A DNA stretch of 22,950 nucleotides, taken from NCBI RefSeq assembly GCF_003334355.1, contig NZ_QOWP01000046.1, one strand, 5' to 3'. Below the pieces are notes generated by a model. That model did not search any database. It worked only from the letters and a program-made list of their open reading frames with translations, and had not been told where the DNA came from. The position numbers were made by a program, and so were the translations under genes. Below are positions 5,081 through 5,654 of the stretch, piece by piece. Origin of the DNA: Escherichia coli (GTDB lineage Bacteria; Pseudomonadota; Gammaproteobacteria; Enterobacterales; Enterobacteriaceae). The stretch's first letter is position 1. Every line of letters begins with the position of its first letter.

Positions 5081-5330
5081 GGTAATATTAAATCGGAACA
5101 TTTACATCGCGGAATGTAAAATTTAAATAAAAAGGACTCTTCCATGAGCCAAAATTCCTGAAATCTTAAGGGTAAGATAAAAGGTCTTAATCAGAATGAC
5201 ACGTTTTATTAATAAATAAAGCTATTCTTTCATTGCTGTGTTTTTCTTTACAAAAGTAATCCTTGCTATGGGTGGTTAATCATGCGTTAATGGTGTTCTG
5301 GTTTGTTACAAATTTATCTGAAGCAGTCAT

Positions 5331-5339
5331 TGTTATAAT
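5331..5339 (+). promoter_or_regulatory. Candidate extended -10 element (TGtTATAAT) for the cold-shock gene, implying a ~100-nt 5' UTR
   Basis: TGTTATAAT at 5331-5339 in an AT-rich leader upstream of the csp gene; cspA-family genes typically have long 5' UTRs. Confidence 0.2.
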
Positions 5340-5441
5340 TTTATTATTTGTACCTCTTGAGATTTCCTTGTTGGTTTTTCTCTCTGATATTTTTTTCGGA
5401 CCATTCTGCCCAAGGGCTAATTTCTTCAAAAGGTAATAATT

Positions 5442-5654
5442 ATGTCTAACAAAATGACTGGTTTAGTGAAATGGTTTAACCCTGAAAAAGGTTTTGGTTT
5501 CATCACGCCGAAAGATGGCAGCAAAGATGTGTTTGTCCATTTCTCAGCAATTCAGAGCAACGATTTCAAAACATTAACTGAGAATCAGGAAGTTGAATTT
5601 GGTATTGAGAACGGACCTAAAGGTCCTGCCGCTGTTCATGTAGTGGCGCTTTGA
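5442..5654 (+). CDS. cspI: Cold-shock protein, CspA family (CspI-like)
   Basis: 70 aa, [38 protein letters not shown]…, with RNP1/RNP2 motifs (KGFGFI, VFVHF). Paralog name assigned from the Qin-like gene order; family assignment is secure. Confidence 0.9.

Follow-up and report, generated by a model that had tools for sequence, protein, structure and literature searches.

cspI and ynfQ of the Escherichia coli Qin prophage: very probably one self-contained moron with a 144-nt leader

A cold-shock gene that lies in a prophage of Escherichia coli, just behind the lysis genes and preceded by a non-coding gap of 361 bp (5081-5441, GC 31.0%), raises the question of how much of that gap is leader, from where the gene is transcribed and which of the small genes behind it share its transcript. 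We addressed this question in a stretch of 22,950 nucleotides of contig NZ_QOWP01000046.1 (the window in the following), which comparison with K-12 MG1655 and strain PSS-12 identified as the E. coli prophage Qin in a less decayed state. Over its whole length the window is 99.8% identical to the prophage of PSS-12, which is located at the Qin site, is flanked by ynfB and ydfJ and retains lambda-like terminase, head and tail genes; positions 4043-8270 are 98.7% identical to K-12 Qin. The alignment of 5041-5960 with K-12 MG1655 contained a single-base difference, a run of seven T's (T7) here against a T8 run in the K-12 cspI leader. A megablast search recovered matches to 4583-6600 in 2156 of 5426 complete E. 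coli genomes, many of the copies being 100% identical, and the identical copies carry the RefSeq annotation rzpQ/cspI/ynfQ/ynfR/ynfN/gnsB. The features of the region, some of them placed by homology as discussed below, are the following.

4583..5080, plus strand: rzpQ, Rz-type spanin gene that closes the lysis cassette and forms the left edge of the cargo block (from the open reading frame list and the RefSeq entries for identical DNA)
4776-5030: rzoQ, nested inside rzpQ
5081..5242: AT-rich spacer of ~160-180 bp, GC ~29%, poorly conserved
5243..5291, plus strand: putative cspI promoter, by homology, with an UP-like AT-rich part (5243-5262), -35 TTGCTA (5263-5268), a 17-nt spacer and an extended -10 TGcGTTAAT (5283-5291)
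5298..5441, plus strand: putative cspI 5' UTR of 144 nt (K-12: 145 nt), with C5298 aligned to the cspA +1
Within this leader: GGTTTG at +3, the T7 run (5390-5396), the GCCCAAGGGC hairpin or 'upstream box' (5408-5417) and the SD sequence AAGG (5430-5433)
5442-5654, plus strand: cspI, 70 aa, DNA identical to K-12 cspI
5665-5853, plus strand: ynfQ, small zinc-ribbon protein of 62 aa with CxxC...CxxC (RefSeq annotation)
5856-5921, plus strand: ynfR, open reading frame of 21 aa that overlaps the terminator at 5861-5881
5861-5881, plus strand: intrinsic terminator after ynfQ, GGCTCC-TTCG-GGAGCT (hairpin 5861-5876) with T6 (5876-5881), the first one on this strand
5926/6000-6155, plus strand: ynfN, frameshifted; the K-12 annotation covers 6000-6155 only
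6327-6500, plus strand: gnsB (annotation)
~6527-6556, plus strand: intrinsic terminator after gnsB (terminator scans)
6652-7062, minus strand: ydfO, cargo block
7120-7353, minus strand: ynfO, cargo block
7553-7564, plus strand: cos cohesive-end sequence GGGCGGCGACCT, an exact match to the lambda cohesive end, near the right edge of the cargo block

The open reading frame at 5442-5654 (plus strand) encodes a single cold-shock domain of 70 residues, with RNP1 KGFGFI (in the context KGFGFITP) and RNP2 VFVHF in the translation of 5442-5651, and the full-length product scored 137.8, 127.5 and 124.4 bits with the NCBIfam models of CspG, CspA and CspE, respectively. It is the ortholog of K-12 CspI (b1552), with identical coding DNA, the same flanking genes and the same chromosomal site. 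The genes that the preliminary description had called cspI-like, zinc-ribbon and gnsB-like are, on the basis of identity, synteny and RefSeq annotation, cspI, ynfQ and gnsB themselves, and the run of small genes between lysis cassette and cos, said to be arranged as in Qin, is that of Qin itself, with the Rz gene ending at 5080 and cos at 7553-7564. The feature under study is thus the already characterised cold-shock gene cspI, so that the outline of the preliminary description was right but ordinary; what had to be revised are the extent of the leader and the number of terminators.

The AT-rich region of ~360 bp had been taken as a whole for a long leader of the cold-shock type. That the region is AT-rich and that there is a long leader both held, yet only the last 144 nt (5298-5441) appear to constitute it. 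Base composition is a poor guide to its extent: AT-richness is not specific to the leader, because the cargo block as a whole (5081-7110) has a GC content of 34.7%, compared to 47.5% for the lysis cassette and 57.0% for the structural genes. The boundary was instead derived from an alignment of six upstream regions, those of this cspI, of K-12 cspA, cspB and cspG, and of the csp genes of phage 2H10 and a Morganella phage. Invariant in all six were the TTGC of the -35, the TG..TTAAT of the -10, GGTTTG at +3 to +8, GCC-N4-GGC, the SD and the downstream box; both GCCCAAGGGC (5408-5417) and AATGACTGGT (5453-5462) fall in invariant columns and correspond to the upstream box and the downstream box. 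Positions 5243-5291 have the make-up of a cspA-type promoter, i.e. an AT-rich UP region, a -35 that starts with TTGC and a TG-extended (C/G)TTAAT as -10. Seven nt past this -10, C5298 aligns with the known +1 of cspA, which would give a UTR of 144 nt, or 145 nt with the T8 allele of K-12. In the cold-box region GGTTTG is invariant and the bases that follow differ (TTACAAATT here versus ACGTACAGACC in cspA). A generic sigma-70 promoter scan made no call at 5263-5291; such a scan overlooks this promoter because its -10 lacks an A at position 2.

The promoter and the transcription start are therefore putative, assigned from homology and from the UTR length in the literature. According to PMC6719143, which cites Wang, Yamanaka & Inouye 1999, cspI is cold-induced with a 5' UTR of 145 bases that contains both a cold box and a downstream box; the UTR lengths given there are 159 bases for cspA, 160 for cspB, 155 for cspG and 145 for cspI. 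Together with the conserved cspA-type motifs this bears out the proposal of a cold-shock-type long 5' UTR for cspI. It also answers, for the essentially identical K-12 sequence, the question that had been put as a test, namely whether the gene is induced in the cold and has a start far upstream of its ribosome-binding site: the K-12 gene is reported to be cold-induced, with the 145-base 5' UTR.

The same boundary was recovered from the conservation of the gap. We collected 80 loci that encode CspI or close relatives from viral contigs, the diverged ones among them encoding a CspI that is 90-93% identical to the one analysed here. In the diverged cassettes, identity to the window was 85-89% for the UTR and 65-82% for the UP element plus promoter, against 19-46% for the spacer flanks (5081-5133 and 5175-5242) and 48-78% for the hairpin-containing segment in between (5134-5174). 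Since identity is high in UTR and promoter and low in the spacer, the conserved and presumably functional unit would be the promoter with its leader of 144 nt and not the full 361 bp. The spacer 5081-5242 is present in a single copy in each genome, at the cspI locus in every case, and carries no annotated feature, and a comparison of it with Rfam yielded no family that reached its threshold. Within it, the segment 5134-5174 contains a hairpin (5135-5150) with a T-run on the minus strand, is better kept than its flanks and resembles a weak minus-strand terminator.

Downstream of cspI, the small cargo genes had been described as individually terminated. This did not hold: a scan of 5000-7200 for a hairpin followed by a T-run yielded only two plus-strand intrinsic terminators, those behind ynfQ and behind gnsB. 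The gap between the cspI stop and the ynfQ start is 10 nt, the annotated start of ynfQ is ATT (5665-5667) and its SD, GAGG (5653-5656), overlaps the cspI stop codon. The window, phage 2H10 and the K-12 paralog pair cspG-ymcF (ymcF ATT at 2185-2187 of locus L003) all have the ATT start and the SD unchanged, whereas the internal ATG of ynfQ at 5743 is not conserved in the same comparison. In E. coli, ATT is seldom used as a start codon and counts as non-canonical; it is the annotated start of both ynfQ and its paralog ymcF. The two products are 66% identical, YnfQ having the CxxC...CxxC motifs, and some of the identical copies of ynfQ are annotated as "cold shock small protein YmcF". The hairpin and T-run that follow ynfQ are likewise conserved after ymcF. 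YmcF and YnfQ are reportedly cold-induced (work attributed to Hemm and colleagues, 2010). Since the two genes are so close and no terminator separates them, cspI and ynfQ would be co-transcribed as a bicistronic mRNA of ~585 nt with a single terminator, and the arrangement of stop, SD and start suggests that they are also translationally coupled. For YnfR, a strong rise after cold shock has been published (PMC6001520).

Taken together, we consider it very probable that 5243-5881 is a self-contained prophage moron that consists of a cspA-type promoter, a thermosensing leader of 144 nt, cspI, ynfQ and a terminator. The unit has its own promoter (5263-5291) and its own terminator (5861-5881), and its GC content of 31-40% sets it apart from the 47.5% and 57% of its flanks. 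It recurs in the phages 2H10, Tritos, PhiR42_1, mEp460 and HannyBb and is absent from lambda itself. In this reading, the cspA-type sigma-70 promoter (UP-like stretch, -35 TTGCTA, TG-extended -10 GTTAAT) would start a transcript at about C5298, and the resulting mRNA would carry a leader of 144 nt. At 37 C the leader and the first cspI codons would be folded into one long stem-loop in which the SD and the AUG are hidden. The mRNAs of the cspA type are short-lived at this temperature. After a shift to ~10-15 C, a shorter, register-shifted leader hairpin would set the ribosome-binding site free, such that CspI, an RNA chaperone, could be made. The ynfQ gene, 10 nt further on and with its conserved AUU and an SD that lies over the cspI stop, would probably be co-transcribed and translationally coupled, and the transcription unit would end at the hairpin and T6 of 5861-5881. 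Of the gap behind Rz, the initial 160-180 bp (5081 to ~5242) would be spacer and not leader. The identity to K-12, the promoter and UTR motifs, the conservation gradient, the terminator positions and the conservation of the ATT start come from the present analysis, and the cold induction, the 145-base UTR and the thermometer behaviour from the literature; for this strain we infer the exact transcription start, the co-transcription of cspI and ynfQ and their translational coupling.

Two other readings of the gap were weighed against this one. According to the first, the whole 361 bp are leader and cspI has no promoter of its own, its transcription either beginning close to where Rz ends or occurring solely within the late transcript that is antiterminated by Q. 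The gene does lie inside the late operon, on the same strand and downstream of the lysis genes, the scan found no plus-strand terminator in the Rz-cspI interval, and late read-through would include cspI during lytic growth of intact relatives such as the phages 2H10, Tritos and PhiR42_1. It is, however, difficult to reconcile a leader of this length with a conserved cspA-type promoter at 5263-5291, with the 145-base UTR given in PMC6719143, or with the fact that the sequence upstream of ~5243 is not conserved (19-46%) while promoter and UTR are. Moreover, in PSS-12, the most similar complete genome, the matching prophage has only a fragment of Q, an incomplete antiterminator at the equivalent of 81-320, and late transcription is therefore not expected in a lysogen of this type. 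We consider this reading very improbable.

According to the other, the gap hides a further gene, either for a small protein (5263-5436 on the plus strand, 57 aa; or antisense, 5280-5429) or for a minus-strand sRNA that ends at the hairpin 5135-5150. There are open reading frames of 49-57 aa on both strands of the leader region, and in phage 2H10 an antisense 'hypothetical protein' is annotated at the leader position. The T-run at 5390-5396 is however T7, T8 or T9 among natural copies, which would shift the frame of either candidate, and the frame 5263-5436 starts upstream of the transcription start; both 5263-5436 (plus) and 5280-5429 (minus) were rejected as genes, in view of the frameshifts that the T-run indels would cause. 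As to an sRNA, the minus-strand terminator-like hairpin (5150-5135), the better conservation of 5134-5174 relative to its flanks and a weak Rfam hit resembling rseX on the minus strand (5127-5215; 25.8 bits, E = 0.36) could be taken in its favour, but the score is far under the gathering score of 50, no paralog was found at the rseX locus or elsewhere in E. coli, and the promoter scan found no minus-strand promoter. The rseX-like match was rejected as a chance match on the last two of these grounds, and a hidden gene seems still less probable than a leader that spans the whole gap.

For the moron reading, the question remains how the leader would sense temperature. The RNA 5298-5501 has a predicted minimum free energy (MFE) fold of -45.7 kcal/mol (z = -2.8 versus dinucleotide shuffles), which is a single long stem-loop where codons 3-9 pair with UTR nt 21-36 and the SD, too, is base-paired; the downstream-box region (~5454-5470, codons 4-9 of cspI) lies in this pairing with UTR nt 21-36. 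Structure probing of the K-12/DH5alpha cspI leader by Borovska et al. 2025 (PMC13271884) revealed a large stem-loop at 37 C that hides the RBS and the AUG; at 10 C the RBS is set free, as the hairpin is then shorter and shifted in register. The predicted MFE fold is the same kind of closed form as the one described by these authors at 37 C. The opening of the SD in the cold was not reproduced by our calculations, the equilibrium MFE of ViennaRNA being closed at 37, 25, 15 and 10 C; because the equilibrium folds stay closed at every temperature, the thermal switch rests on the probing in the literature. In an RNAalifold analysis of 15 natural variants the long-range helix was kept, with compatible one-sided changes only, plus one covarying pair that probably represents a single event, the divergence among the 15 variants being too small for more; the variant set is consistent with the long-range helix, not decisive.

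The region matched the cspA thermoregulator family of Rfam (RF01766) at 5297-5681 with 114.2 bits (E = 6.6e-29), well above the gathering score of 78. The model covers the whole cspA mRNA, though, and when the coding sequence with its downstream part was searched separately (5442-5700) it still yielded 107.6 bits (match 5442-5685), whereas the leader by itself (5081-5444) gave no cspA match at E <= 10. The match is therefore one to the csp coding sequence and is silent on the leader. The UTR part of the RF01766 alignment has many non-canonical pairs and a low posterior probability, and the terminator hairpin of the model (positions ~398-425) corresponds to an alignment gap, with no counterpart after the cspI stop. 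More generally, where a csp gene is assigned to the "cspA thermoregulator" family of Rfam, the coding sequence drives the score, and the assignment should not be read as evidence about the leader.

The value of these results lies mainly in corrections of the annotation: the leader would comprise 144 nt of the 361-bp gap, and cspI and ynfQ would form one unit with one terminator. To this they add the T7-T9 variation of the leader and at least one natural copy without the promoter and most of the leader. The allele states of the T-run were read from individual genome loci and IMG/VR loci: it is T7 in the window, in PSS-12 and in MLI104K2, T8 in K-12, in phage 2H10 and in the majority of the IMG/VR copies; a small number of loci (L013, L016, L056 and L065) have T9. 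As the run is sited in the apical loop of the predicted hairpin, the length polymorphism is probably neutral; less probably, a U7, U8 or U9 at this place might tune the thermometer. The copy that lacks the promoter was found in IMGVR_UViG_2896595138_000002 (locus L009, 1250-1520). It encodes an identical CspI and misses ~248 bp relative to the window (5175-5422), that is the promoter and nearly the whole leader, such that a segment ending in ...CTTAAGGGTAA is fused directly to CTTCTTCAAAAGG just ahead of the SD. The loss is apparently a deletion between AAGGG(C)TAA repeats. The segment 5134-5174 is present in this copy too, beside unrelated upstream sequence.

IF3 discriminates against AUU starts. 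In view of the AUU start and of the SD that overlaps the csp stop, the synthesis of YnfQ and YmcF might depend on ongoing csp translation (by termination-reinitiation) and on the level of IF3, a suggestion that we regard as speculative and rather unlikely to hold. If true, the dependence of YnfQ on csp translation and IF3 would amount to a second, translational timing layer of cold acclimation.

Comparison with known systems places the unit as follows. The cspI of K-12 MG1655 Qin (b1552) is the same gene at the same chromosomal site and with the same neighbours (rzpQ, ynfQ, ynfR, ynfN, gnsB, ydfO, ynfO and nohA); its leader has T8 and 145 nt, as opposed to T7 and 144 nt here, and K-12 Qin has lost the lambda-like head and tail genes that this copy retains. 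The paralogous module of K-12, cspG-ymcF-ymcE-gnsA (with cspH divergent), has the same order as cspI-ynfQ-...-gnsB and likewise consists of a cold-inducible csp gene with a long leader, a zinc-ribbon frame of 62 aa that starts at an ATT 10 nt past the csp stop, a shared terminator of hairpin plus T-run, and then a gns gene (GnsB and GnsA are 67% identical). The cspG module differs in that there is no recognisable prophage around it and that ymcE replaces ynfR/ynfN, and the leaders of cspG and cspI are substantially different in sequence; in the literature, too, the cspI leader is said to 'diverge' (PMC13271884). With the cspA thermosensor (RF01766) cspI shares the promoter architecture, a long leader that starts with GGTTTG, the GCC-N4-GGC hairpin before the SD, the downstream box and the pairing of leader and early coding region, but the leader of cspA has 159 nt (PMC6719143) versus 144-145 nt for cspI, and the 3' terminator of cspA is absent after cspI, where ynfQ is found instead. 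Like other morons that lambdoid phages carry between lysis genes and cos (e.g. bor of lambda), cspI-ynfQ is an extra unit of low GC that brings its own promoter and terminator into the late region and is expressed from the prophage; unlike bor, it has the orientation of the late operon and encodes a temperature-regulated RNA chaperone rather than a surface protein.

Several further observations concern the surroundings of the unit. The ynfN gene, flagged as 'frameshifted' in RefSeq, has in the window and in K-12 a T7 run that is 1 nt shorter than the T8 of phage 2H10, in which ynfN is an intact frame of 76 aa; the K-12 annotation covers only the C-terminal 51 codons. This copy of Qin has further cargo at 81-3272, between a fragment of the Q antiterminator (81-320) and the holin: a gene for a Blc-like lipocalin lipoprotein (476-1000, minus strand), one for a YbgA-family protein (1193-2152) and one for a YdeO/GadX-like regulator of the AraC family (2559-3272). 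At the equivalent position K-12 Qin has cspF, cspB and ynfU. Homology with K-12 Qin ends at 8270 (around 3840 of the K-12 locus L002), inside nohA and where the large terminase gene begins. This end point corresponds to the deletion by which nohA and the tail-fibre region became fused in K-12, and a complete lambda-like morphogenesis module is kept in the present copy. Finally, in Morganella phage IME1369_01 (locus L006, 1502-2869) the csp gene is found just downstream of Q, and the annotation of the next gene is that of a lauroyl acyltransferase of lipid A biosynthesis. As the E. coli paralog of the latter, lpxP, is cold-induced, the csp and acyltransferase genes of this phage may form a cold-adaptation cargo pair.
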